Translations under genes and position numbers: made by a program | Assembly (NCBI GenBank): GCA_017549445.1 | Contig: JAFYUU010000001.1 | Span: forward strand, 16,332-80,331 | DNA: 64,000 nt | Source of the DNA: Alphaproteobacteria bacterium | GTDB taxonomy: Bacteria; Pseudomonadota; Alphaproteobacteria; Rs-D84 | Reading direction: 5' to 3' | The notes under the pieces: model-generated | What the model saw: only the letters and a program-made list of their open reading frames with translations | The model's database searches: none | What the model was told of the DNA's origin: nothing | Shown here: positions 2,438-44,081 of the stretch, piece by piece | How the letters are laid out: every line of letters starts with the position of its first letter | Numbering within the stretch: the first letter of the stretch is position 1

Positions 2438-2511
2438 TGGCAGGGGCAGAAGGAATCGAACCCTCATCCGCGGTTTTGGAGACCGATATTCTACCGTTGA
2501 ACTATGCCCCT
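2438..2511 (-). tRNA. tRNA-Trp (anticodon CCA), CCA end encoded
   Basis: Hand-folded cloverleaf on the reverse strand. Acceptor AGGGGCA/TGCCCCT, anticodon loop CTCCAAA, T-arm GAGGG-TTCGATT-CCTTC, discriminator G plus CCA. 74 nt. Confidence 0.9.
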
Positions 2512-2695
2512 GTGAACTGCAACACCCGTCTTTTACACCGGCCTGCACATCGACAGTCCGTGCCAGAATAGCACACCGACATAAAAAATCAAGTGGAAAT
2601 ATTATAATATTTTTATTTTTTACTTGCAAGACCTTTTTGATACAACAGGATTACTTTCCGCAAATCAATAGTTTTTTGTTTTTGCAAATTTTTTC

Positions 2696-2725
2696 TTGCA
2701 TGACATGCCATTTTTTGTCTACAAT
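2696..2725 (+). promoter_or_regulatory. Sigma-70-like promoter for the virB8-B9-B10 operon
   Basis: TTGCAT (2696-2701), 18-nt spacer, TACAAT (2720-2725), ending 25 nt upstream of the GTG start at 2751. Confidence 0.35.
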
Positions 2726-2750
2726 CGTTTTAATCAAGGGGGAGAAATCC

Positions 2751-3434
2751 GTGCAAAATCGTGTAAAACCGCCAATTTTATTATCTCGACTGTTGGGACT
2801 GGTGCTGTGTGCAACACTGGTGGTGGCGATTGCCATGCTGACCGTTTTGGACGGAATGTTTCCATTGAACAAGGCACAGGTATTCTTTTTAACCACCAGA
2901 CCACGTGACACAATCGAGGTTAAACTGACCGACCTGCCCCCGACAGATGAAAATTTGGTTAAATACAAACGGGCTTTTATTCGTGAATACATCAAGGCAC
3001 GCAATGAAATTGTGCCTGACGCTGATAAAATGCGGGCAAAATGGAACAATAATGCGGGGGCATTGGTCAGAAACTGGTCCAGCGATGCAGTATTCGAGGA
3101 TTTTAGCAACACACGTATGTGGAACGCAATTATGTATGATGGGGCGGGATTTGATTGGTCTTGTCCGGTGGGATTTGAACGGGGGGCAATCGTCGCCAGA
3201 AGCAGTGATGATGTGTATGCTGTAAAATTCCGCTATTTTTGTGCAAATAATGATGGACAGATTGCACCAAAAGATTATACAATCGTATTAAAGTTAGATA
3301 CTGATGATACAAGTGTGACCAAGTGGGCGGACAGGATAAACAACCCATTGGGGATTCGGGTCACAGAATACAAGGTAGAATCTGTGGACGGTGATAAAAG
3401 TGTCACAACAGATCCACTGGAATTTGATTTGTAA
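2751..3434 (+). CDS. virB8: Type IV secretion system protein VirB8-like
   Basis: N-terminal TM helix (LLSRLLGLVLCATLVVAIAMLTVL) followed by a periplasmic domain with VirB8-type motifs (KRAFIREYIKARNEI; NNPLGIRVTEYKVE near the C-terminus). GTG 2751 with an AGGGGGAG RBS is preferred over the ORF-track ATG at 2637. Confidence 0.75.
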   Translation: MQNRVKPPILLSRLLGLVLCATLVVAIAMLTVLDGMFPLNKAQVFFLTTRPRDTIEVKLTDLPPTDENLVKYKRAFIREYIKARNEIVPDADKMRAKWNNNAGALVRNWSSDAVFEDFSNTRMWNAIMYDGAGFDWSCPVGFERGAIVARSSDDVYAVKFRYFCANNDGQIAPKDYTIVLKLDTDDTSVTKWADRINNPLGIRVTEYKVESVDGDKSVTTDPLEFDL

Positions 3435-3461
3435 GAAACAGAAAACGGAAGGAAGATAGGT

Positions 3462-4988
3462 ATGACATTCGTGAAAAATTGGAAGTTAAACGTATCGGCA
3501 ATTTGCCTGGGGGTGATGTTGGCAATGCCTGCGGTGGCAATTGAATACGGTGTGCAGACCGCATGGGACAACCCAAATGCCAATATGGCAAGTGGCAGTT
3601 TGAAACCTGGCTATGCCCAACTGACCTGGTCGGCGGGTTCTGTTTTACCAATCAAATTACGCAACGGTATGGCGACAATGGTCAATCTGCCAAATGGTGA
3701 ACAGATTGCAGATATTGTCGCAGGAAATGAATCTTTGTTCGATATTTCTGCACAACAGGGCGATCGCACAATGTTTTTGTCGCCTAAACCAGATAATATG
3801 GGGTCGGATACAAATCTGATTGTGACGGGGAAGTCCGGAAACAGATATATCTTTTATCTGCGTAGCGAACCATCTAATTCCAGTGAAATTACATATTCCC
3901 AGGTTGATGTTATGCTGGACGGAAATGGCAAATTGCCAGTTATAGCGGGAGCAACGTCTGGCGGTGGGATGAATTCGGTCTTTACAAAAACAGCAAAAAC
4001 AACTGCGTCAAATACAGTTGGGGTGGATGGCGAAGATTATGGTTGGATTAAATCGATGAAAATCGATCCGTCTGAATTTAGATTTGACTTGGACATTTTC
4101 GTTCCAAACCCAGACGACTATGTTATCGCACCAGAACGTGTGTGGCGTGACAGAATCTTTACATATATTGACTTTGGCGACAAGGTTATTGCAATGACAC
4201 AAAGACCGGTTGTGTCGCTGATGGTTGAAGGTGGCGAATCGCCCGTGGGATTCCGCACAGATGGCGAAGATGGTCGTCTGTTGATTGTCGAAGCGGTTGG
4301 CGATATGGTTTTAAGAAGTGGCCAAAGAATTGTATGCATCAAGAAACGTGAAAAACCATTCTTGATTGCTGATACTGCGTCTGTTATGGCCCTGGCCGAG
4401 GCGAACGTTGCACAAAGTATGTTGTCAGGACAATCGTTGAACAATATTGCATACACGGCAGATATGGCCGCAATGAGTGCAGGCACTTCTTACACAGGGA
4501 CCCCAATGTTTATGGGCAATACTGCGACCGTCAATCCAATGACGGGGGCTGGAACATATATGCCCGCAGGATACATGGCCCCAGCCGTTGGTGGTGGAAA
4601 CAAAGCAATGACAATGTTGCCAATTCAACGTGATACCGCCGGTTCTTATTTGCCACAGTCAAATATTCCACTGATTACCAGCAATCAGAGTGGCGTGGCG
4701 GTTGAATTGAAATCCGACCCATCGGTCAAGGCATTAAATGATTACTGGACAGGGTTGATGGCGAAATTTAGTGGCGAAAGTGGCCAAGGAATACTGACCA
4801 AATATAAAGATATGGTGTTCTTTGCCGTGGACGAAGAAGGTGTGGGCGACCTGGGCGAAGGGGCATCGACCGCACGTCTGTATCGTCTGCGTATTGGGCC
4901 ATTTGCAGATATCACAACAGCACAGGAACTGTGTGATCAATTGTTGAAATTCAGCGGTGCCAGTTGCAGTGTCGTCAGAATTCAATAA
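3462..4988 (+). CDS. virB9: Type IV secretion system protein VirB9-like with C-terminal SPOR domain
   Basis: Signal peptide (...VMLAMPAVA). VirB9/CagX N-domain (LPIKLRNGMATMVNLPNGEQIADIVAGNESLFDIS...TNLIVTGKSGNRYIFYLRSE) and C-domain (APERVWRDRIFTYIDFGDK...RLLIVEAVGDMVLRSGQRIVCIKK). The last ~100 aa look like SPOR (ARLYRLRIGPFADITTAQELCDQLLKFSGASCSVVRIQ). Confidence 0.8.
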   Translation: MTFVKNWKLNVSAICLGVMLAMPAVAIEYGVQTAWDNPNANMASGSLKPGYAQLTWSAGSVLPIKLRNGMATMVNLPNGEQIADIVAGNESLFDISAQQGDRTMFLSPKPDNMGSDTNLIVTGKSGNRYIFYLRSEPSNSSEITYSQVDVMLDGNGKLPVIAGATSGGGMNSVFTKTAKTTASNTVGVDGEDYGWIKSMKIDPSEFRFDLDIFVPNPDDYVIAPERVWRDRIFTYIDFGDKVIAMTQRPVVSLMVEGGESPVGFRTDGEDGRLLIVEAVGDMVLRSGQRIVCIKKREKPFLIADTASVMALAEANVAQSMLSGQSLNNIAYTADMAAMSAGTSYTGTPMFMGNTATVNPMTGAGTYMPAGYMAPAVGGGNKAMTMLPIQRDTAGSYLPQSNIPLITSNQSGVAVELKSDPSVKALNDYWTGLMAKFSGESGQGILTKYKDMVFFAVDEEGVGDLGEGASTARLYRLRIGPFADITTAQELCDQLLKFSGASCSVVRIQ

Positions 4989-5024
4989 TTCGGCCCAAAA
5001 AGCACTTTCGATTATCCCTAGCAG

Positions 5025-7478
5025 GTGGTGGACAACAGTATGAGCAAAATTAAACAGCAATTCAAAACGTGGCAGGCAAATACCCCTAAACGGGTGCAGT
5101 GGTTGTTGGTTGCGGTGGCGGGTGTCGTAATACTGATTTTATTGACACTGATTTTTATGCGTAAGGAAGAAAAAGTTATAGAAGAACGTGAAGCAATTCC
5201 CGCAGAACTGAAATTTAATCCAGGCGACAGTATAAACTGGCCCGATGTGTTGGTGGGCGAAACCAAAGAGCAGACAATAAAAATTTCTGCAAATGTCCCT
5301 GTTAAAATCGCCAAGGTGAATTTAACACAGGATATAAAAGGACTGACCGTCAAACAGACGTGTGCCAGCATCGCAGAAATCAGTGCAGAAACTGCATGCA
5401 CGGTGCGTCTGATTTATACCCCAACCGCACAGATGACACCGGTGGTGGTGCCGCTGATGTTGGATTGGTATCCGATTGGGGATTCGCCAGACATGAATAA
5501 AATGGCAAAAATTACAGTTGTGCTGGGGGCCCAAATGCCCGAGGTTCAGCAACCTGCCCCGGTGCCGGTTAAACCTGTTGTCGATACACCAACAGAAGAA
5601 GACAACACCCCCGTGTTTTACGATGAAGAACCAGAAGACGAGGAAGAATATTACAGACAAGTCCCCGTTAAAAAAACACCCGCAATCGCACAAGAAAATC
5701 CATTTGACGAATACGAACAAGACGAGGAGGATATACCACAAATCCCGTCCGAGGCGTGTTCGGATTTTGCAATGCCTGGATACGGGACATCGGGTCGGCA
5801 GACGGGTTGGATTAAACCTGTTGATGGTGCCTATTATTTTTATCCTTTCTCGGATACAGAGTGTAAAAATCCAACGGGGGTCTATAACCCAGATAACGGA
5901 ATTATCACTGACATCAAAAGCAAAGGTAAAAAAATTGGAACAGATGCAGAACATGTCGGCTTTGTCGGTATGTTGGGCGGGGCGATTCCAAAACTGTCTA
6001 ACCCAGTAAAATCCGCAGGTGTCAATCGGGCAAAGCAATTGACCACACAGGAATTGGGAACAATGGCAAGTTCCAGTGCTGGGGGCGGTATGGCACGTAT
6101 GGGGCAAGACGGGTTCGAGGCAATGAATGGCCTGATCAAAGAAGAAATTGATAAGGAAATTTATCTGGGGTCAGCAAGCGATAATTCACGTGTTTTGGCA
6201 TCAAAACAATACGACAGACAATTTATTCTGCGTCAGTATAAACCAATTCCTGCGACAATCGTGTCAGAAATTCGTGCCGATCCCGAAGCATTGAGAAACA
6301 ATCGCCTGCCTGTGCGTGCAACGGTTGATAGAAACGTATATTCAGACGATGGACGCAACGTGATTATACCAACGGGAACGTTGCTGTTGGGGTATATCTC
6401 GGGCGAATTGCCAGGGCCATACACATCAATCGGACGTATGGATATTAACTGGTATCAGTTTATACTGCCAAATGGGGTAGAGTTTAATTTCAAACAAGGA
6501 ACTGCACCATTTTCAGGCGATGCACAGGGTCGTTCTGGTATCCCAGGTTATGGTAGCACCGACTATATGGAGCAATTCTTTATGCCGATGCTGACCGCAA
6601 TTGTGCCGGCGGCGGTGAATCTGATTGCACCGGTCAGTGATGCGTTCGTAAATCAAATTGACCTGGATAACAATACAGTGGTGCAAAGCGGAACCGTGCG
6701 TTCGTCAGAAATGGCAAAGAACGAGATTATTACCGCATGGAATCAGGTTGCACAAAAACTGATTGTCGATATGATGGATAACACAACACCACCATTTTCA
6801 ATCGCAGCAGGAACACGTATAACCGTTTATTCGCCAGTGGATTTGGTCGCATCTTGTGGCGAGGAAGGAAGTGGTAAAAAATGTTCGTTAGGGTATGCGG
6901 ACAGTAATCGTTGGGACGAATGGCACAACAATGCAGATCTGAAGCAAGACGGTTCGTGGGTTGGTCAGGTTCGCAGTTTCAATTTGGCAAAATATTGCGT
7001 CAAGGACAATAACGGCAGGTGGGATATACAGCCAAATAGCGAAACACAGATAGCAAAAGAAGGATACGATTACAGATCTGTGTTATTCTATTGCCAATCA
7101 TTGAACTATCAGGCGATAAACAATGCCAAGCAAGATGCGGTCTATCAAAATCAACAGCAACAGTTCGCATCGCAGGAATATAATACCCAATCTACTGCCG
7201 GGGTGTCGGGGGCACAGACGGGTATTGTTGGCAATAAAACTTATAACGAACAAGTTTTGGGATTGACGTATAACGAAGATGGATCAATCGAAAATCCGTT
7301 TGAAGACAAAAAAGATGAAGTCACGGAAACGGTCGAGGTCGTCACATGCGATGGCGGTATAATGCCAGATGCAAATGGATGCTGTCCGGGGGAAACATAT
7401 ACCGATATGGGCGATCAAGGATTTAACTGTTGTCCAGATGCAGGTGGCGATTGTTTCCCACCAATCATAAATAACTGA
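5025..7478 (+). CDS. virB10: Type IV secretion system protein VirB10/TrbI-like, extended
   Basis: N-terminal TM helix, then a Pro-rich linker (PEVQQPAPVPVKPVVDTP). TrbI/VirB10 domain at aa ~395-607 (LPVRATVDRNVYSDDGRNVIIPTGTLLLGYISG...RMDINWYQFILPNGVEF...DAQGRSGIPGYGSTDY...AAGTRITVYSPVDL). A 210-aa C-terminal extension follows. The start may be ATG 5040, preceded by an AGGTGG RBS. Confidence 0.8.
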   Translation: MVDNSMSKIKQQFKTWQANTPKRVQWLLVAVAGVVILILLTLIFMRKEEKVIEEREAIPAELKFNPGDSINWPDVLVGETKEQTIKISANVPVKIAKVNLTQDIKGLTVKQTCASIAEISAETACTVRLIYTPTAQMTPVVVPLMLDWYPIGDSPDMNKMAKITVVLGAQMPEVQQPAPVPVKPVVDTPTEEDNTPVFYDEEPEDEEEYYRQVPVKKTPAIAQENPFDEYEQDEEDIPQIPSEACSDFAMPGYGTSGRQTGWIKPVDGAYYFYPFSDTECKNPTGVYNPDNGIITDIKSKGKKIGTDAEHVGFVGMLGGAIPKLSNPVKSAGVNRAKQLTTQELGTMASSSAGGGMARMGQDGFEAMNGLIKEEIDKEIYLGSASDNSRVLASKQYDRQFILRQYKPIPATIVSEIRADPEALRNNRLPVRATVDRNVYSDDGRNVIIPTGTLLLGYISGELPGPYTSIGRMDINWYQFILPNGVEFNFKQGTAPFSGDAQGRSGIPGYGSTDYMEQFFMPMLTAIVPAAVNLIAPVSDAFVNQIDLDNNTVVQSGTVRSSEMAKNEIITAWNQVAQKLIVDMMDNTTPPFSIAAGTRITVYSPVDLVASCGEEGSGKKCSLGYADSNRWDEWHNNADLKQDGSWVGQVRSFNLAKYCVKDNNGRWDIQPNSETQIAKEGYDYRSVLFYCQSLNYQAINNAKQDAVYQNQQQQFASQEYNTQSTAGVSGAQTGIVGNKTYNEQVLGLTYNEDGSIENPFEDKKDEVTETVEVVTCDGGIMPDANGCCPGETYTDMGDQGFNCCPDAGGDCFPPIINN

Positions 7479-7486
7479 TAATCATT

Positions 7487-7515
7487 ACCCGCCCGTGTGG
7501 CGGGTCATTTATTTA
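7487..7515 (+). terminator. Rho-independent terminator after virB10
   Basis: Stem ACCCGCC (7487-7493) / GGCGGGT (7499-7505) with a 5-nt loop, followed by CATTTATTT. Confidence 0.55.
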
Positions 7516-7549: not shown

Positions 7550-7576
7550 CACGCATCAATGATGCGTGATTTTTTT
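7550..7576 (+). terminator. Second tandem rho-independent terminator
   Basis: Stem CACGCATC (7550-7557) / GATGCGTG (7561-7568) with a 3-nt loop, followed by ATTTTTTT. Confidence 0.55.
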
Positions 7577-7759: not shown

Positions 7760-8110
7760 ATGAACAATACACACGCAATATCTTTACACGCAGAAAAATT
7801 CCAAAGTGCAGAACAGATTTGGTTCTGGTTTCTGTATTCACGTGCAATTCGCAACAGTTTCGTGCGACAAAACAATAACACCAGACGAAAGATATGTGAA
7901 CTGGTTGATGTAGAAACACTGATTACTAAACTGTATCTGGCAGGCCGATTAAACGATGAACAACTGGTCGTGATGAAAAAATATGGTGATAAAAGACGTG
8001 CACCACATCAATATATCTGGACAGAAAACAGTGACGCAGACAAATGGAAACGGGCGATGGAGGTGCTGGAATCAGCATGCAAGGAACGTGGTTGGATAGA
8101 AGAACAATAA
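7760..8110 (+). CDS. Hypothetical small protein (116 aa), possible HTH-like region
   Basis: Strong RBS (AAAGGAGAGAAGA ATG). No antisense gene competes for the locus. The segment RLNDEQLVVMKKYGDKRRAP weakly resembles sigma-70 region-4 / LuxR-type helices. No firm family assigned. Confidence 0.6.
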   Translation: MNNTHAISLHAEKFQSAEQIWFWFLYSRAIRNSFVRQNNNTRRKICELVDVETLITKLYLAGRLNDEQLVVMKKYGDKRRAPHQYIWTENSDADKWKRAMEVLESACKERGWIEEQ

Positions 8111-8124
8111 AGGGGGTTAGGGAA

Positions 8125-8463
8125 ATGATTATTATTGCCTTTTCAGAAAAGACATCAAAAATACTGCCCAGAATTGTATGCAGAAAATTCAAGCACGTTG
8201 CACCAATAATTTGCAAGGGCGAGTATCTGGTTATGTTGCAATTTGTGCGACCGGGGGTAATAGAAAAAATCAAATTAAATAATCGTGATTTATCTGTCTT
8301 GGCACAGTTTGGATGGGTGTTTGTATATCTGCCAATCGAATTACCAAATGATTTTTCGACATGCAATATTTGGTCGTGTGTAGGCCTGGCAAAACGAGCC
8401 ACCGCAATACACGCCCCAATGATTCAAACACCCGATGCGTTGTATAAAATGATTTGTAATTGA
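8125..8463 (+). CDS. Hypothetical small protein (112 aa)
   Basis: ATG 8125 with an AGGGGG RBS lies 15 nt after the stop of the previous gene, suggesting an operon. The ORF-track start at 8044 overlaps the upstream gene and lacks an RBS. No recognisable motifs. Confidence 0.55.
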   Translation: MIIIAFSEKTSKILPRIVCRKFKHVAPIICKGEYLVMLQFVRPGVIEKIKLNNRDLSVLAQFGWVFVYLPIELPNDFSTCNIWSCVGLAKRATAIHAPMIQTPDALYKMICN

Positions 8464-8466
8464 AAA

Positions 8467-8488
8467 AAGTGTGCCAATTGGCACACTT
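8467..8488. terminator. Bidirectional hairpin terminator between the 8125-8463 gene and yidC
   Basis: Perfect stem AAGTGTGCC / GGCACACTT with an AATT loop, flanked by an A-run on the left and a T-run on the right. Confidence 0.7.
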
Positions 8489-8491
8489 TTA

Positions 8492-33954: not shown

Positions 33955-35280
33955 ATGAAAAAATATTGTATCCCGATTTTCTTGATTTGTATCACGACTT
34001 TCTGTAAAGCAAAACAGATTGAGATGACACCAGTTCAGGCAATTAAAACCGCTGGTGAATTTATTGATGTGGGGGACATGGAAAATGCCTGGCAGATTTT
34101 AACACTGATGCCAGAAACGAACAATCAGGCAATCGAGATTGAAAGAAAATTCTTGAAAGCACAAATCCTGCAACAGCAAGGCGACCCACAGGGGGCCATA
34201 AAATTATATCAACAGATTTTAGATAAAAATCCAGAACTGGCACGGGTGCGGTTCGAGTTGGCAGTATGCTATATGCAAACAAAACAATGGCAACGGGCCG
34301 ATTGGCACCTGCGGTTGGCAATGGCGGACGATGCACTGGGGACTGATGCAAAACAGGTCATGAACGCATACAGATATATTGTGCGACAAAACAAACGGTG
34401 GAACGTATGGTTTAATGTTGGACTGGCCCCCGATAACAACATAAACAATTCCGTTGCTGGACAAGAATGCGTGTCCACAATCGTGGGGCCTGTGTGCAAC
34501 AGATTGAACAAGCCGGAATCTAGCATCGGATACAATGCAACAGTGGGTGGTAATCACGAATTTGTCTTATCTGGTCGGTGGCGATGGAAGTCACAGGCAA
34601 ATTTAGACACAAACATTTATCATAAACATAAATTCGATGAATTACATATTTCTGCCCAGACGGGCCCAAGATTTATCTGGGAAAACGGGGACGTGTGGTT
34701 AGCAGGAACAATCGGACGCAGATGGTATGGTTGGGAAAGATATAACTGGTATGCAGGGGCAAAAATTGCAGGGCAATTTGATTTATCAAATAAACTGGGG
34801 TTGGGGTTGAATCTGCAATTCACAAACAACAAATATGATTTATATGATGAATTCTTTTCAGGACAAACCTATTCGGCAAACATACATACAATGTACGCAT
34901 TTAATTCCAGTATCTACACCGTATTCAAGACAGGAATAATTCGGGAAAATGCACGTAGTGATATGTATTCTTATACGCAACCATACGTGGCGGTGGGTAT
35001 GGGGGTGCAATTACCATACGGATTTAATGTTTATGCAGAACCTGCGGTGTATCTGTCAAAGTATGACGCACCACAATGGACAATACAAGATAACAACTTT
35101 GCACAAATCACCGAACGAAATCAGACATGGCGATATATGTTGGCGATTTCCAACAATAATATCAGGATTTGGAATACTGTGCCGATGATTACATTTGCAT
35201 ACACGAAACGTGATTCTAATATCTGGCAAAGACAATATGAAAAAGCATCGATTGCAATCACACTGACCCAGCGTTTTTAG
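33955..35280 (+). CDS. Slam-like outer-membrane protein (TPR N-domain plus DUF560-type beta-barrel)
   Basis: Signal peptide, then TPR-like helices (AIKLYQQILDKNPELARVRFELAVCYMQTKQWQRADWHLRLA). The C-terminal ~280 aa show an alternating beta-strand pattern (WNVWFNVGLAPDNNINN...) ending in the aromatic terminus TLTQRF. Confidence 0.6.
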   Translation: MKKYCIPIFLICITTFCKAKQIEMTPVQAIKTAGEFIDVGDMENAWQILTLMPETNNQAIEIERKFLKAQILQQQGDPQGAIKLYQQILDKNPELARVRFELAVCYMQTKQWQRADWHLRLAMADDALGTDAKQVMNAYRYIVRQNKRWNVWFNVGLAPDNNINNSVAGQECVSTIVGPVCNRLNKPESSIGYNATVGGNHEFVLSGRWRWKSQANLDTNIYHKHKFDELHISAQTGPRFIWENGDVWLAGTIGRRWYGWERYNWYAGAKIAGQFDLSNKLGLGLNLQFTNNKYDLYDEFFSGQTYSANIHTMYAFNSSIYTVFKTGIIRENARSDMYSYTQPYVAVGMGVQLPYGFNVYAEPAVYLSKYDAPQWTIQDNNFAQITERNQTWRYMLAISNNNIRIWNTVPMITFAYTKRDSNIWQRQYEKASIAITLTQRF

Positions 35281-38813: not shown

Positions 38814-40094
38814 TTATTTTGTAATTTTTTCGTAATATCCCTTGATGCCATTCCATAAAATATTGATGTCTTTTTTCGCCTTGTCATAGAATTCTTGGGA
38901 TACGCTGACGTTAAATATCGTCTTGATTAAAGCCGGTATCATCGTCATAAACATCGCAATAAACACACCCAATAACACAATCGTTATCAGCGAATCGTTT
39001 CGCATCATCAGACCATCAAGCAGAATCGTCGAATCGTTTTGTTCAAATGCCAACTGTAATCTGAACACACCGTCCCAAGTCCCAAATACAGCGTTCAGAA
39101 ACATTACTGAAAATGTTAAAAACACACCCGTCAGGGCCAGACCCAACGCACCATTTACGGCACTGTCCACAATGGCAGGCATACCCTTGGAATGGGCACC
39201 CTTGGGGAAAAGTTTCCAATCGGAAAACAACCAGGACATCAGCGTCAGGGGCAACAAGATTAAATCCATACCAATCTTGACGAAGATTTCCAGAAAAAAC
39301 AGCGGTATCGGCAACAGGGCGACAAAAAACAGAACCATTACCAATAATCCTGCAAAGAACATTGGAACATTTGGAAATATCGGAATATCCCACATAATTT
39401 TATGCATATAACGTTCATTAAATGCCATACCCATCATTGTCCAGCCAACCGTCATTCCCAGCGATGTCATTTGATGGACATTTGCCAACTGGCACGTCAG
39501 ATTGTGACGCAGGCGGGGCGAAAACGCACCGCCGTCTGGGGATGTTTTATCCGCCAGGGCCGTGGCAACAATGCACGTGTCAAAATTAGAATCGTCCGTT
39601 ATAACATGGTTGACCGCCAGCCCCACGTTAAACACCGGGGTAATAACAATATCTGATATCATTCGGGGCAGTGGCGTGACCAACAAAATACATATTATCG
39701 CAGTTCTGACAAATTTAGTGGTGAATTGTGTGCCAATGGCAGAAGGCGATTCGGGTGGTGTTCCATTGAAATATCCCGACAATAATTTCCAAGCCATCCA
39801 GACCGCAACCAGTGTCAAAATAATTGGAATCATTGCCGAACCAAGACCAGAATAAACACGGGGTAAAAATCCAGACAGGGTCGAGATAATGTCTGAAAAC
39901 ATTTGGCAAGACCAACAACTGGAAAAGAATTTCATCGCATCGACCATGTTGACGGGGGCGACACTGCGGTATATTGAAAAACCCGCCAAAGTCCCCAGGC
40001 CTGCAATACCGACCGCAATCCAGGGAGCAACCGCCCCTGCCCCGATTGGCAGAAAGGATAAAAACACTATCCAAAATTTTTTTAATCGATTCAT
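38814..40094 (-). CDS. Polytopic membrane protein, paralog P0 of the array (VirB6/TrbL-like, tentative)
   Basis: Using the start MNRLKKFWIV at 40094, the protein is 427 aa. The 74-codon upstream extension in the ORF track is antisense to the neighbouring gene P1. It has many hydrophobic helices, a CWSC motif at residues 60-63, a central loop with a Cys pair, and an amphipathic charged C-terminus. It shares this architecture with 40169-45380. Confidence 0.6.
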   Translation of the reverse strand: MNRLKKFWIVFLSFLPIGAGAVAPWIAVGIAGLGTLAGFSIYRSVAPVNMVDAMKFFSSCWSCQMFSDIISTLSGFLPRVYSGLGSAMIPIILTLVAVWMAWKLLSGYFNGTPPESPSAIGTQFTTKFVRTAIICILLVTPLPRMISDIVITPVFNVGLAVNHVITDDSNFDTCIVATALADKTSPDGGAFSPRLRHNLTCQLANVHQMTSLGMTVGWTMMGMAFNERYMHKIMWDIPIFPNVPMFFAGLLVMVLFFVALLPIPLFFLEIFVKIGMDLILLPLTLMSWLFSDWKLFPKGAHSKGMPAIVDSAVNGALGLALTGVFLTFSVMFLNAVFGTWDGVFRLQLAFEQNDSTILLDGLMMRNDSLITIVLLGVFIAMFMTMIPALIKTIFNVSVSQEFYDKAKKDINILWNGIKGYYEKITK

Positions 40095-40104
40095 TGCTTT
40101 TAAG

Positions 40105-40134
40105 TATATCACATTTTGTCCCAAATGTGATATA
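40105..40134. promoter_or_regulatory. Perfect 12-bp inverted repeat (candidate operator) in the divergent P0/P1 intergenic region
   Basis: TATATCACATTT (40105-40116), TGTCCC spacer, AAATGTGATATA (40123-40134). The right arm overlaps a TATAAT box (40131-40136) facing P1. The left arm ends 10 nt from the P0 start codon. Confidence 0.5.
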
Positions 40135-40168
40135 ATTGAAAAGATAAATATTATAAAGAGAGAATAAA

Positions 40169-41416
40169 TTGCGTCGTTTTTTTGCAACAGCACTGTTTTT
40201 TGTGGGACTGGCGTTGATGCCTGGTGCTGGGCACGCAGATTTAATTCAATCGTTTGACCTGTCGCCCGTGGTGCCAACTGTGTTGGACGCAATGATGATG
40301 GTCGCAACGGGAACATACGAATACTTTGTTCAAGATGGATGGGGAATTATACAGTTGCTGATTTGGGGATTTTTGGGATTCTCGATTGCACTGGGGCTGA
40401 TTAAAATGTATTTCCCAAAACAGATTCTGCAATTTGTTGGTTTTTCCGGCGGTGGCGAAATGTGGGATGGAAAGGCCACACCAAAAAATATGATAGAAGG
40501 AATACTGAAACCAGGATTGCGTGCAATTATTGCGGTGATTTTCCTGTTGCAGATTAAACCTGTGTTTATGACAAACTGGATATTAAATCCGTTTTTAGAA
40601 TTTGGTTCGATTTACACACGTGTTGTGCTGGGCACAATGAACGAAGCAAATATCGTCAACCCTGAAAAAGTGACCTGCCCCGCCGACATCGTGGAAAAAG
40701 CATGGATTTCTGAAAAGTCCTGTGAATTTTTGACCCAACCTGTTGCAGACCTGTCACACGCAAACAACCAGGTCATTCGCCGGGGAATTCAATTTATGAA
40801 ACAAGGTTTGCGGGGTATGCTGACACTGTTTTCACATAACGGTGGGGAAAACCTGATGAACCTGTTGTCGGGTATTGTAATTATCGTCACGTTCGCTGGG
40901 TGCAATTTATTTATGGCACTGTTGATTATCCAGGCAATCTTTAATCTGGGGATTGCAATTATACTGTATCCATTTAACGTCCTGGTGTGGGTGATAAAAG
41001 ACGACAAGGACTGGTTCAATCTGTGGCCCGCATTCAGCAATATCGTCAAGGCACTGCAAGATATAATAATTACGATGATTTCTTGTGCATTTATACTGTG
41101 CATAAACGTTGCAGTTATCAAGGCGTTGTTCCAATGGAACTCGTCCGTGTTCGTTGCTGCGGCAGGCGGAACCGCATCAGGTAATATTCCAACCGTTGCA
41201 AATAACGCAATGGGGTTCGGACAACATTCTGTGCTGATAATTTCTGCAATACTGACGTTCTATATCATGAAACGTGTGTTCGATGTCACGCAAAGTCAAT
41301 TAAAGGCATACACAGGAGGTATGGACGGACTGTATAACACGGTTAAATCTGATGCCAAGGCAACCGTCAGCATTGTTAAAGACCTGGGGAAAAAAGTTAA
41401 AGGATTGTTTAAGTAA
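40169..41416 (+). CDS. Polytopic membrane protein, paralog P1 (VirB6/TrbL-like, tentative)
   Basis: 415 aa with a TTG start after an AAAGAGAGAA RBS. Cleavable-looking signal peptide (ALFFVGLALMPGAGHA), several TM helices, a central Cys-pair loop (CPADIVEKAWISEKSC) and a charged C-terminal tail. Confidence 0.6.
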   Translation: MRRFFATALFFVGLALMPGAGHADLIQSFDLSPVVPTVLDAMMMVATGTYEYFVQDGWGIIQLLIWGFLGFSIALGLIKMYFPKQILQFVGFSGGGEMWDGKATPKNMIEGILKPGLRAIIAVIFLLQIKPVFMTNWILNPFLEFGSIYTRVVLGTMNEANIVNPEKVTCPADIVEKAWISEKSCEFLTQPVADLSHANNQVIRRGIQFMKQGLRGMLTLFSHNGGENLMNLLSGIVIIVTFAGCNLFMALLIIQAIFNLGIAIILYPFNVLVWVIKDDKDWFNLWPAFSNIVKALQDIIITMISCAFILCINVAVIKALFQWNSSVFVAAAGGTASGNIPTVANNAMGFGQHSVLIISAILTFYIMKRVFDVTQSQLKAYTGGMDGLYNTVKSDAKATVSIVKDLGKKVKGLFK

Positions 41417-41421
41417 ATATC

Positions 41422-42639
41422 ATGGACGAACTGATGCGTAATTTTGTTGATAAAACAGTCCAGTGTTGGGGATGCGAATTGTTTGATCGCCTGTTCCAGG
41501 TTATCAATGTGGCCGTGACCGCCGTGTATGACAATATCGCACAGTTCTGTATGATACTGATGTTGGTGATATTTGCGTTTATGATTCTGAATGCATTTTA
41601 CCAGAATATGAAGGCACTGCACGATAACAAGTCGCCAGATACGTGGTATAAAAAGTCGGTCCAAAAAGCATTTGTAAATTCTGCGTTCGTGTTGGCACTG
41701 TTGGGATTGGGTGTGACGGTGCCACGACTTATCACAACAATAACGTTCGAGCCAGTCGCAACAACCACACAGTTGTATTCCCAGGCAATAATCGGTATGA
41801 ATCAAGATGAAATAAATGAACGGGTCACATACCAGCCAATCAAATTGGATAATACTCAACAAGAGATGTTTTTCAGACCACAACTGCGTGACAGGGTTAT
41901 CTTGTTGATGAAGACAACCATCGCAGAATTTCAATCCTATATCAAACTGGGTATAGCGATGATGGACAAGGCATTTTCTTGGGACGCACTGTTAAAGTTC
42001 GGTTTGGGGTCGATTATGAAACATGTCGCACTGTTTATGGCGGGGCTGTATATGTTTATCACGTTTATGCGGATTTTTATGCAATACTGTTTTAGATTCG
42101 CAGACGTTATTGTGGCAATGGCTATGTTCGCATTTTTCTTTCCGCTGTCGCTGATGATGATGGCATTCAAGGGCGTAGAGCATGTGCCAGATTGGCTGAC
42201 ACATTTTGGCAAAGGGGTCGGGACAGATCAATTCAAGAAACTGGTAAATGCAATTGTGGCATTGGCTTCGTGCGTAATTACATACACCGTGATTATGGTA
42301 ATATTGGCCAAGTTCTTTTCTGACCCAGATGTCGCAAGTGTTGGACTGATGGAAAAAATTACAACAGGACAGATTTTCGAGTCCGATTTGTCACTGGAAA
42401 ATTTAGAAGATATAACACTGGTAAAAACTGTTATACTGACATACGTTATGGTTTTCATTTACAAACAAATCCCACAGGTGACTAAAACAATCCTGTCGGC
42501 ATTTAATGTGGGTGAAGAAACAAGTTTAAGTGACCAATTGGCAAAAGACGCAGAACGTTTGGTCACGGTCGCAGCACAGGGTGCCGTCAAGGTCGGAAAA
42601 ATTATCGCATCTGGTGGCGAAGAAAAAAAAGATGAATAA
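41422..42639 (+). CDS. Polytopic membrane protein, paralog P2 (VirB6/TrbL-like, tentative)
   Basis: 405 aa, starting 5 nt after the P1 stop. CWGC motif at residues 15-18 followed by TM helices. C-terminal tail ...GGEEKKDE. Confidence 0.6.
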   Translation: MDELMRNFVDKTVQCWGCELFDRLFQVINVAVTAVYDNIAQFCMILMLVIFAFMILNAFYQNMKALHDNKSPDTWYKKSVQKAFVNSAFVLALLGLGVTVPRLITTITFEPVATTTQLYSQAIIGMNQDEINERVTYQPIKLDNTQQEMFFRPQLRDRVILLMKTTIAEFQSYIKLGIAMMDKAFSWDALLKFGLGSIMKHVALFMAGLYMFITFMRIFMQYCFRFADVIVAMAMFAFFFPLSLMMMAFKGVEHVPDWLTHFGKGVGTDQFKKLVNAIVALASCVITYTVIMVILAKFFSDPDVASVGLMEKITTGQIFESDLSLENLEDITLVKTVILTYVMVFIYKQIPQVTKTILSAFNVGEETSLSDQLAKDAERLVTVAAQGAVKVGKIIASGGEEKKDE

Positions 42640-42648
42640 AGGCAGATA

Positions 42649-44079
42649 ATGAAAGCAAAACTGATTCTGTTGGCATTAAAAATATTTATGGTTGCCGTCA
42701 CTTTGGGGATTGGTATTTGGTATCTGTCTTCGTCAATCGGTGGTGGGGCATTGACATACACCAGTGTTGATAATTTCTTGATAGCAGTTGGGGCAACAGA
42801 TGGAGATGTCGCAAGTGTCAATGGTTGTTTCCTGTGCAGGTATTTAACCGATTTGTTCACGGTGCTGGGGGACGCAACGGGAATGTTCTGGGAACGGATG
42901 TTGAATATACTGTTGGTGCTGATGGCGTTGGGGTTTGGTCTGTTTATGATTATAACGGGGGTTAAACATGTGTGGGAAGCACTGAAAGATTCTGGAAACA
43001 ACCCAAAGACAGACGATAAACGCATAAATGCAAAACCATGGGTTGATAAAGTTGTTAAACAGGGTATTCGGGTGTTATTTGTGTCGGCACTGTTGGGTGG
43101 TTTGGCATTTGGCGGAACAGATGCACTGCGATTTATTTCTAATTTGATTATCACACCTGTGTTATATGTGGGGGCAGAACTGGCGATGATGGCCAGTGGT
43201 ATTTCGGATGGAGCAACGTGCGGTGCATTAGCCACATCAGGCAATGAAATTCTGGGACCTGTGTTGGGGTCATTTATGTGCGTAATTGGAAATATAAACA
43301 GTGTTATCCTGGCTGGGGCATCAGGGGGATTTGCGTTGATGAACTATGCCTGGTTAGGCATGGGGGGCGGTGCGTTCACGTGGATTGCAGGACTGGGGTT
43401 GGTGCTGATGTTTCTGATGATTGGTTTTGATTTGTTCTTTCAGATTCTGTCCGTGATATTCAAACTGATTTTCGTAATTATCTTTATGCCGTTCCTGTTG
43501 GTTGCATACGCATTCGAAGGGGCATGGAAGGTTGCGGGGGGACTGTTCAAAAGTGGTATCAATATGGTGGTCAAATCCGCCGTGCAAATTGTTATTGTCT
43601 CGTTAAAGGTTGTTATTATTTATGCAACCGTGGCATATGCATCTGATGCATATATGCCAGGGCCTGTTGATGGATACAGTGCAATCTTGCCACCGATAAT
43701 GGGTATGGGGCCGGAAAATCCAGATACACAGACAATGGCGGTTATTGATGTGTTCGCACAGTGCGAAAAAGTCGGACTGAGTGATGGCGAAATGGATAAA
43801 GACAAATTCACAGAATGTTTCAATGAAAAAAAATCCCAGGTAGAAAGTGTTTATCCTGATGCGTTTGGTTTCTTGGACGATGGGTGGGATTTCTTGGTTA
43901 TGATGTTTGGATTGTTCTTTATTTATTTCTATGTAATCAAGGCACGGGTGGATAATATCATCGGTAAAGAATCGTCTGAACAGTTTGACTTTGGCGGGCA
44001 GTTAAAATTACTGGGGCAGAAAATCTGGGCCGTGCCAAAGCAAATCGGTGAAGCAATCGCCAAAGCAGTGGAATCTTAA
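42649..44079 (+). CDS. Polytopic membrane protein, paralog P3 (VirB6/TrbL-like, tentative)
   Basis: 476 aa, starting 9 nt after the P2 stop. N-terminal TM helix, CFLC at residues 60-63, Gly-rich TM helices, and an extra Cys-containing acidic loop (CEKVGLSDGEMDKDKFTEC). Confidence 0.6.
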   Translation: MKAKLILLALKIFMVAVTLGIGIWYLSSSIGGGALTYTSVDNFLIAVGATDGDVASVNGCFLCRYLTDLFTVLGDATGMFWERMLNILLVLMALGFGLFMIITGVKHVWEALKDSGNNPKTDDKRINAKPWVDKVVKQGIRVLFVSALLGGLAFGGTDALRFISNLIITPVLYVGAELAMMASGISDGATCGALATSGNEILGPVLGSFMCVIGNINSVILAGASGGFALMNYAWLGMGGGAFTWIAGLGLVLMFLMIGFDLFFQILSVIFKLIFVIIFMPFLLVAYAFEGAWKVAGGLFKSGINMVVKSAVQIVIVSLKVVIIYATVAYASDAYMPGPVDGYSAILPPIMGMGPENPDTQTMAVIDVFAQCEKVGLSDGEMDKDKFTECFNEKKSQVESVYPDAFGFLDDGWDFLVMMFGLFFIYFYVIKARVDNIIGKESSEQFDFGGQLKLLGQKIWAVPKQIGEAIAKAVES

Positions 44080-44081
44080 AA

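Follow-up and report, generated by a model that had tools for sequence, protein, structure and literature searches.

The 64,000-nt stretch of DNA analysed here, hereafter the window (GCA_017549445.1, contig JAFYUU010000001.1, positions 16,332-80,331; coordinates given without a contig name are window positions), contains three plus-strand open reading frames (ORFs; 2637..3434, 3462..4988 and 5025..7478), separated by spacers of 27 and 36 nt, that encode VirB8-, VirB9- and VirB10-like components of a type IV secretion system (T4SS). The source is a 763-kb metagenome-assembled genome (MAG; 19 contigs, 64% complete) of Candidatus Enterousia, a lineage listed as Alphaproteobacteria incertae sedis by NCBI and placed in the order Rs-D84 by GTDB. 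An interpretation made earlier from the letters alone, the sequence-only reading, had assigned the three proteins to the VirB8, VirB9 and VirB10 families, and profile searches agree. The matches to VirB8 (PF04335, 45.5 bits), CagX/VirB9 (PF03524, 75.2 bits) and TrbI/VirB10 (PF03743, 65.1 bits) all exceed the curated Pfam cut-offs (23.2, 34.2 and 35, respectively). NCBIfam gives identical names to all three proteins, with scores that are low and sub-equivalog, and the trio proteins are thus divergent.

The first frame is open from 2637 and offers ATG 2700 as an alternative start. A GGGGAG Shine-Dalgarno sequence precedes GTG 2751, making this the more likely initiation codon than ATG 2700 or 2696, the first position of the region marked in the sequence-only reading. 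From GTG 2751, virB8 (2751..3434, +) would encode 227 aa and the trio would span 2751-7478 (+). The protein is bitopic, with a short N-terminus, one transmembrane (TM) helix and an NTF2-type periplasmic domain that contains an NPLG motif; orthologues are 213-281 aa in length in the ORF calling used here. A search of the PDB with the single VirB8 sequence returned nothing relevant. Structures were found only with the family profile, which matches VirB8/TrwG/TraE proteins (4lso, 7o41_D and 4o3v), the matched structures having been obtained from Bartonella, R388, Brucella, Rickettsia typhi and pKM101.

The 508-aa product of virB9 (3462..4988, +) has a signal peptide, VirB9 N- and C-terminal domains (residues ~53-300), a variable low-complexity linker rich in Ala, Gly, Met and Thr and, at its C-terminus, a SPOR-type domain (residues ~411-507; PF05036, 22.9 bits, Pfam cut-off 21) with a beta-alpha-beta-beta-alpha-beta order of elements. 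This SPOR-type domain is conserved across the order Rs-D84, and the C-terminal VirB9 domain is extremely conserved in the orthologue alignment. The VirB9 family profile matches TrwF (7o3j_B) and Xanthomonas citri VirB9, and a Foldseek search with the AlphaFold2 (AF2) model placed 8rt6_B (TrwF) and 6gyb_B (X. citri VirB9) at the top (E 7.5e-9). The whole-protein AF2 models of VirB9 and VirB10 are poor (mean predicted local distance difference test scores, pLDDT, of 53.5 and 51.2, respectively), and structural statements are made here for domains only; in the VirB9 model, pLDDT is ~80-87 for the N-terminal domain and 70-86 for the SPOR part.

The virB10 frame (5025..7478, +) encodes 817 aa, also recognised by the NCBIfam VirB10 model NF038091; translation probably starts at ATG 5040, as M6 is invariant in the orthologue alignment. 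The N-terminal part consists of a TM helix (~24-46), an ASH/PapD-like immunoglobulin (Ig)-type domain (60-170) and a Pro/Glu-rich linker. NCBIfam identifies, in addition, a choice-of-anchor-D domain in VirB10, and the AF2 model of the Ig domain (pLDDT 86-91) matches the ASH domain 6fvi (Foldseek, E 7e-6). A conserved beta domain with two Cys residues (245-310) precedes the TrbI barrel (403-606), in which long helices at 514-544 and 561-585 occupy the position of the outer-membrane antenna. A C-terminal extension of 210 aa ends in an invariant Cys-rich tail, the invariant Cys residues in the alignment being 611, 620, 658, 690, 775, 786, 787, 802, 803 and 810. The VirB10 family profile matches CagY, ComB10 and TrwE structures, and TrwE/VirB10 (7o3j_A) is among the top Foldseek matches of the AF2 model. 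At 6994-7083 in virB10, 88 nt are exchanged for 82 unrelated nt in a related strain (run X2) whose identity elsewhere is ~98%; this strain-variable patch corresponds to residues ~657-686, within the C-terminal extension.

The trio has the housekeeping setting ascribed to it from the sequence, as established with Pfam and ARAGORN. Upstream are genes for L1, L11, NusG and SecE and, as the boundary beside this secE-nusG-rplK-rplA block, a minus-strand tRNA-Trp (CCA; 2438..2511); downstream are genes for YidC, LspA, a KefB-like protein, KsgA and RecR. The GC content of the trio equals that of its neighbourhood. Signals of its own had also been proposed. Two hairpins that resemble intrinsic terminators (7487-7505 and 7550-7568, +) are indeed located directly 3' of the virB10 stop codon, and the promoter-like site, a sigma-70-like CCGACA-18-TATTAT sequence (2576..2605, +) in the 240-nt gap 5' of virB8, is only a weak candidate, with 9/12 matches in a consensus scan that is not functional evidence. 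Weak support for transcription comes from a gut metatranscriptome, in which parts of virB8 (2828-3052) and virB9 (3945-4207) are covered by a small number of short contigs. Beyond the terminator-like hairpins, two small genes follow virB10 in the same direction, sm1 (7760-8110, +; 116 aa) and sm2 (8125-8463, +; 112 aa), with a further hairpin (8465-8490) after sm2. Both are marked by their conserved position, 3' of virB10 in 73/80 (sm1) and 70/80 (sm2) Enterousia loci and in several other genera. Neither has a Pfam or NCBIfam match or a predicted membrane segment, and they may or may not be parts of the secretion system.

Genomes of the order Rs-D84 are ~0.7-1 Mb in size and lack most biosynthesis and standard transporters, and the bacteria are thought to depend on a partner cell (PMC12306168). 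That comparative study makes no mention of secretion or of a T4SS, and among the papers searched none links Rs-D84 with type IV secretion. Relatives of VirB9 are present in Candidatus Enterousia and in alphaproteobacterial MAGs obtained from the guts of ruminants, mice and humans. Profile scans were extended to 61 whole genomes of the family, 42 of which are good, and to an order-wide set that includes 140 good genomes. The gene order rplK-nusG-secE, virB8-virB9-virB10-sm1-sm2, yidC-lspA-kefB was found at 80/80 species-level loci, allowing for contig ends, and virB8-virB9-virB10 are located beside nusG/secE, in the same order, in 17 further genomes, namely G014, the single-contig genome G030 and 15 from other genera of the family. 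A VirB9 with the SPOR domain is single-copy in 150/151 genomes of the order, including 140/140 good ones from six families; VirB10 is present in 42/42 good genomes of the family. In the 15 genomes from other genera, all three ORFs are full-length, with identities to the window proteins of 56-72% for VirB9, 25-49% for VirB8 and 29-55% for VirB10. One genome, G016, has an in-frame stop in its VirB9 match and is the sole genome of this kind.

The trio stands alone in position, as the sequence-only reading had it, but it is not a stand-alone scaffold: VirB4, VirB11 and VirD4 are encoded in practically all good genomes, each at a housekeeping site of its own. VirB4 is present in 41/42 good genomes of the family as a single gene (~805 aa, one above-cut-off match per genome), and in relatives virB3 (PF05101, 26 bits, above cut-off) is located directly upstream. 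VirD4 is present in 42/42 good genomes of the family and in 140/140 good genomes of the order, and nearly every family genome has one copy of a gene for a VirB11-like ATPase of 331-333 aa. The G014 VirB11 matches TIGR02788 with an E value of 5e-45, below the equivalog cut-off. On contigs shared with the trio, VirB4 is ~155-160 kb away (G030 and G053) and VirD4 is 54 kb (G061) or 290 kb (G076) away. In G014, the VirD4 gene lies between an unnamed gene and an rsmE-type RNA methyltransferase gene, the latter with a pseudouridine synthase gene next to it.

In the source genome, a scan for virB2, virB3, virB4, virB11 and virD4, the check proposed with the sequence-only reading, identified a VirB11 (contig C6, 23150-24145; 89% identical to the G014 copy) and, below threshold, a VirB2-like protein; VirB4 and VirD4 have no match, and VirB3-VirB4 and VirD4 were located in the relatives. 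The statement that no partner genes lie beside the trio stands for VirB4, VirD4 and relaxase, for which the source-genome contigs contain no match; integrases were not searched for. The matches of T2SS-E/VirB11 type listed for this genome lie away from the window's contig, on C6 and C15. That neither VirB4 nor VirD4 was found in the source genome is probably an assembly effect. In G014, the virB3-virB4 operon adjoins a cluster resembling those for Tad or type II secretion systems (T2SS). In the source genome, contig C15 ends within that cluster, so that the site expected for virB4 lies beyond the assembled sequence, and the whole 20-kb neighbourhood of the G014 VirD4 gene is missing from the source assembly. 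The adjoining cluster, also similar to those for type IV pili, encodes a 545-aa T2SS-E ATPase ~10 kb from virB3-virB4 in relatives; the source-genome copy occupies C15:152288-159736, up to the contig end, and a copy in relatives is at L023 1868-9780.

The remaining candidate parts are identified less directly. A stand-alone gene (C15:11511-11849, -) that is conserved across genera encodes a VirB2-like pilin of ~113 aa. Besides a signal peptide, the protein has two hydrophobic helices; TrbC matches are at most 23.7 bits, relative to a cut-off of 27.9. A second and much weaker VirB2/TrbC look-alike is present at C8:16301-16501 (-). Directly 3' of bamA is a gene for a 48-aa lipoprotein with the lipobox LAGC (C4:25956-26102, +), with homologues in the lipoproteins encoded ahead of virB8 in the operons of out-group alphaproteobacteria described below and therefore the equivalent of VirB7. 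Next come genes for two bitopic proteins that evolve fast and are as large as VirB8 (231 and 217 aa; L155 5986-7530). An affinity of these two to VirB8 is no more than hinted at, by 14.7 bits with Pfam and hhalign probabilities of 9.6% and 36%, and there was no PDB match.

The best VirB6 candidate is within the window, in an array of five paralogous genes for polytopic membrane proteins that was delineated by paralogue alignment. Four are in tandem on the plus strand (40169-41416, 41422-42639, 42649-44079 and 44082-45380; together 40169..45380), and a divergent member (38814..40316) is on the minus strand. The proteins, 405-500 aa long, align at 14-20% identity. No match to the array was obtained with Pfam at E values of up to 5, with a profile search of the PDB or in hmmsearch and phmmer comparisons with out-group and plasmid ORFs. 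In relatives, TrbL (PF04610, cut-off 25.9) gives sub-threshold scores of 23.3 and 22.7 bits (G042 and G021) and 17.6 bits (G060), and these, the three best of the TrbL matches that were checked, land on orthologues of 42649-44079 and 44082-45380. The tandem genes are, on these sequence comparisons, the candidate VirB6 of the system.

At the position expected for VirB5, after virB4, G014 encodes (L022 10901-11882) a conserved secreted protein of 206 aa and then a lipocalin-like protein (PF12702, E 3e-34). No significant family match was found for the 206-aa protein, the only one having an E value of 0.22; a homologue (209 aa, 58% identical) is encoded in G030 (L027 7966-8595). Elsewhere in the window, 33955-35280 (+) encodes a surface lipoprotein assembly modifier of the Slam type (PF04575, E 2e-29), preceded by tetratricopeptide repeats at the N-terminus, which suggests that this tiny-genome bacterium has surface-exposed lipoproteins.

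The arrangement is not that of a mobile element. The feature of a conjugative T4SS or integrative and conjugative element (ICE), a relaxase within a mobile contiguous cluster, is not seen: the genes are dispersed and at fixed housekeeping sites, and neither Relaxase (PF03432, MOBQ/P) nor TrwC (PF08751, MOBF) has an above-cut-off match in any of the 61 genomes (0/61 for each). The fixed synteny, single-copy universality and separate sites of the ATPase genes, together with these negatives, sustain the earlier view that the T4SS is chromosomal, fixed and scattered and not a conjugative element.

Most probably, the trio is one islet of a complete, dispersed and vertically inherited chromosomal VirB/VirD4 T4SS that is present across the order Rs-D84. 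The VirB8 with an NTF2-type domain, the VirB9 and VirB10 core subunits and VirB11 place this system among the P-type T4SS. It is single-copy and spread over at least seven sites, which would encode, respectively, the VirB2-like pilin, VirB3 with VirB4, the five VirB6-like proteins, the VirB7-like lipoprotein after bamA, VirB8-VirB9-VirB10, VirB11 and VirD4. The trio islet would supply the scaffold that spans the envelope. VirB10, anchored in the inner membrane, would extend to the outer membrane through its barrel and its antenna helices and form the outer-membrane core ring together with VirB9; the SPOR-type domain of VirB9, on its flexible linker, probably ties this ring to peptidoglycan; and VirB8 would build the periplasmic and inner-membrane assembly platform. 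VirB4, VirB11 and VirD4 would power the machine. With the parts identified, dispersed, universal and unaccompanied by the common relaxases, we infer that they assemble into one machine, as the islets are universally co-retained in genomes of less than 1 Mb.

The presence of VirD4 without a relaxase, together with the lifestyle, suggests that proteins, and not conjugative DNA, are what the machine delivers into or onto a partner cell, presumably the one on which this biosynthetically crippled bacterium depends. It is probably an inherited tool with which a partner-dependent organism acts on other cells. The sequence-only reading had proposed a fixed effector-translocation machine; the fixed, non-conjugative part of that proposal is borne out and translocation itself is inferred only.

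Several points weigh against so complete a system. Assembly of the dispersed parts is deduced from their co-retention. VirB4 and VirD4 have no match in the source-genome contigs (64% complete) and their presence there is extrapolated from relatives, the assignments of VirB6 and VirB2 depend on topology, position and Pfam matches below threshold, and VirB1 and VirB5 were not identified. The relaxase negative covers PF03432 and PF08751, MOBH, MOBV, MOBC, MOBT and integrases not having been searched. The RNA evidence consists of a few short contigs for which DNA carry-over is possible, and the AF2 models, with a low mean pLDDT of 51-53, can be trusted for single domains only.

A dispersed machine could, alternatively, move DNA, either by ComB-like uptake or by conjugation or DNA release with an unrecognised relaxase. 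VirB10 does score on the ComB10 model NF038092 (48 bits) and matches the ComB10 structure, only two relaxase families were searched, and tiny genomes without nucleotide synthesis could profit from DNA import. We consider this improbable. The Helicobacter ComB DNA-uptake systems are not known to include VirD4 or VirB11, and both are universal in this lineage; no MOBQ relaxase, the family used by the nearest plasmid relatives, was found; and fixed, universal conjugation is hard to rationalise in 0.7-1 Mb genomes without mobile DNA.

Far less likely still is that the trio is an ATPase-less scaffold, in which the outer-membrane core of a T4SS has been put to a new use, for attachment or as a passive conduit. 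The 64-kb window has no ATPase gene, VirB4 and VirD4 are absent from the source contigs and VirB9 and VirB10 have unusual extra domains, all as such a scaffold would have it, but the occurrence of VirB4 (41/42) and VirD4 (42/42) in the family, of VirD4 in the order (140/140) and of VirB11 in nearly every genome contradicts it, as do the VirB11 of the source genome itself and the mapping of its missing VirB4 region to a contig end. That the genes are decaying remnants of a fragmented ICE or plasmid, as the conjugative-type cluster with a MobA/MobL relaxase around their closest plasmid homologues might suggest, is equally hard to credit given frames that are intact except for the one stop in G016, an identical site beside secE in all genomes examined, one copy of each gene, a composition that fits the neighbourhood, VirB9 identities of 56-80% across genera and no Relaxase or TrwC match.

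Enterousia and other Rs-D84 bacteria are widespread in the guts of ruminants, rodents, birds and humans, with genomes of less than 1 Mb, and their route of nutrient acquisition is not known. The universal retention of a complete T4SS in genomes this small therefore offers the best lead at present to how these bacteria live, and the preferred reading, a dispersed VirB/VirD4 machine, provides points of entry: VirB9-SPOR or VirB10 could mark the surface or the periplasm in imaging, and VirD4 could serve to fish for substrates. To the study of T4SS it would add a second lineage in which a machine encoded by an operon elsewhere is scattered on the chromosome and yet stoichiometrically functional. 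It would also make it possible to ask whether the architecture of the Rickettsiales vir homolog (rvh) system, including multiplication of VirB6, is a repeatable outcome of genome reduction. More speculatively, and with rather less than an even chance in our estimation, Rs-D84 may have converted a VirB/D4 system of the conjugation type into an indispensable dispersed chromosomal organelle independently of the Rickettsiales, with at least seven islets, a five-fold VirB6, a VirB9 tethered to the wall and a VirB10 with a Cys tail. The machine would then be the physical interface at which extracellular gut bacteria that lack biosynthesis and standard transporters exploit a partner cell; this would be a second, convergent domestication of the rvh type and the first in a gut-lumen lineage.

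The closest chromosomal homologues are virB7-virB8-virB9(SPOR)-virB10-virB11 operons in six genomes of out-group alphaproteobacteria of 1.1-2.5 Mb (G180, G429, G233, G195, G280 and G253). Their VirB9 proteins have the same SPOR tail and are 35-41% identical to those of Rs-D84, and their VirB11 proteins are 50-59% identical. VirB10 is enlarged in this out-group to 1273-2222 aa (L142-L147), 1.5 to nearly 3 times the 817 aa of the Rs-D84 protein. In three of the genomes, the homologous small lipoprotein precedes virB8; virB11 is attached and, in one, virD4 is 7 kb away, whereas in Rs-D84 the lipoprotein and virB11 have moved away. One out-group genome has the order virB9-x-virB10-virB11-virD4 with an unmatched ORF of VirB8 size upstream. 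Plasmid p1 of Sphingosinicella sp. BN140058 (NZ_CP035502.1) has a contiguous cluster, MobA/MobL...B4...B8-B9-B10-B11-D4, with a MOBQ relaxase. Identities to Rs-D84 proteins are 31% for VirB4, 38% for VirB9, 30% for VirB10, 39% for VirB11 and 30% for VirD4, and the plasmid VirB9 (430 aa) and VirB10 (548 aa) are shorter than their Rs-D84 counterparts. The virB8-virB9-virB10 unit thus differs, as had been noted from the sequence, from the usual virB8-virB9-virB10-virB11(-virD4), since the nearest chromosomal and plasmid relatives keep virB11 and, in some cases, virD4 attached. As these homologues keep the genes together, Rs-D84 has lost the linkage of virB7, virB11 and virD4 to the trio, and the out-group and plasmid arrangement is probably what the ancestral system looked like.

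In the minimal P-type cores of known structure, R388 TrwH/F/E with TrwG and X. citri VirB7/9/10, the VirB8, VirB9 and VirB10 domains match those of the trio by profile and fold. The solved chains that were matched are short (VirB9, 255-266 aa; TrwE/VirB10, 395 aa) and so have no room for a SPOR tail, an Ig-like N-terminal domain or a Cys-rich C-terminal extension. The genes for the R388 and X. citri core complexes are contiguous.

The rvh system, as described by Gillespie et al. (2009, PMC2653234), is a scattered, vertically inherited P-type T4SS in which virB4, virB8 and virB9 are duplicated. Both it and the Rs-D84 system are chromosomal, vertically inherited P-type T4SS that are broken up, like an archipelago, into islets of a reduced genome. 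Both have a five-fold VirB6-like array, the support for VirB6 identity being sub-threshold in Rs-D84, and a VirB7-like lipoprotein in its own islet, beside possible degenerate VirB8-like genes. Neither has a relaxase, going by PF03432 and PF08751 in the case of Rs-D84, and both are presumed to act in the interaction with a host or partner. The differences are equally clear. The rvh system belongs to the Rickettsiales and this one to Rs-D84; VirB4 and VirB9 are single-copy here and duplicated in rvh; virB11 and virD4 each stand alone, in contrast to the virB8-virB9-virB10-virB11-virD4 operon of rvh; and there are at least seven islets, compared with five. Unlike in rvh, the VirB6-like proteins are 405-500 aa long, VirB9 has a SPOR domain and VirB10 has Ig-like and Cys-rich additions. 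As to a placement among named rvh or lvh systems, the best NCBIfam matches, to the PRK13897-13900 models, are no more than a lead. The sequence-only reading had seen the rvh pattern here. Since lineage, VirB4/VirB9 duplication and operon structure all fail to agree, the likeness to rvh is one of layout, scattered islets inherited vertically, and not one of membership.

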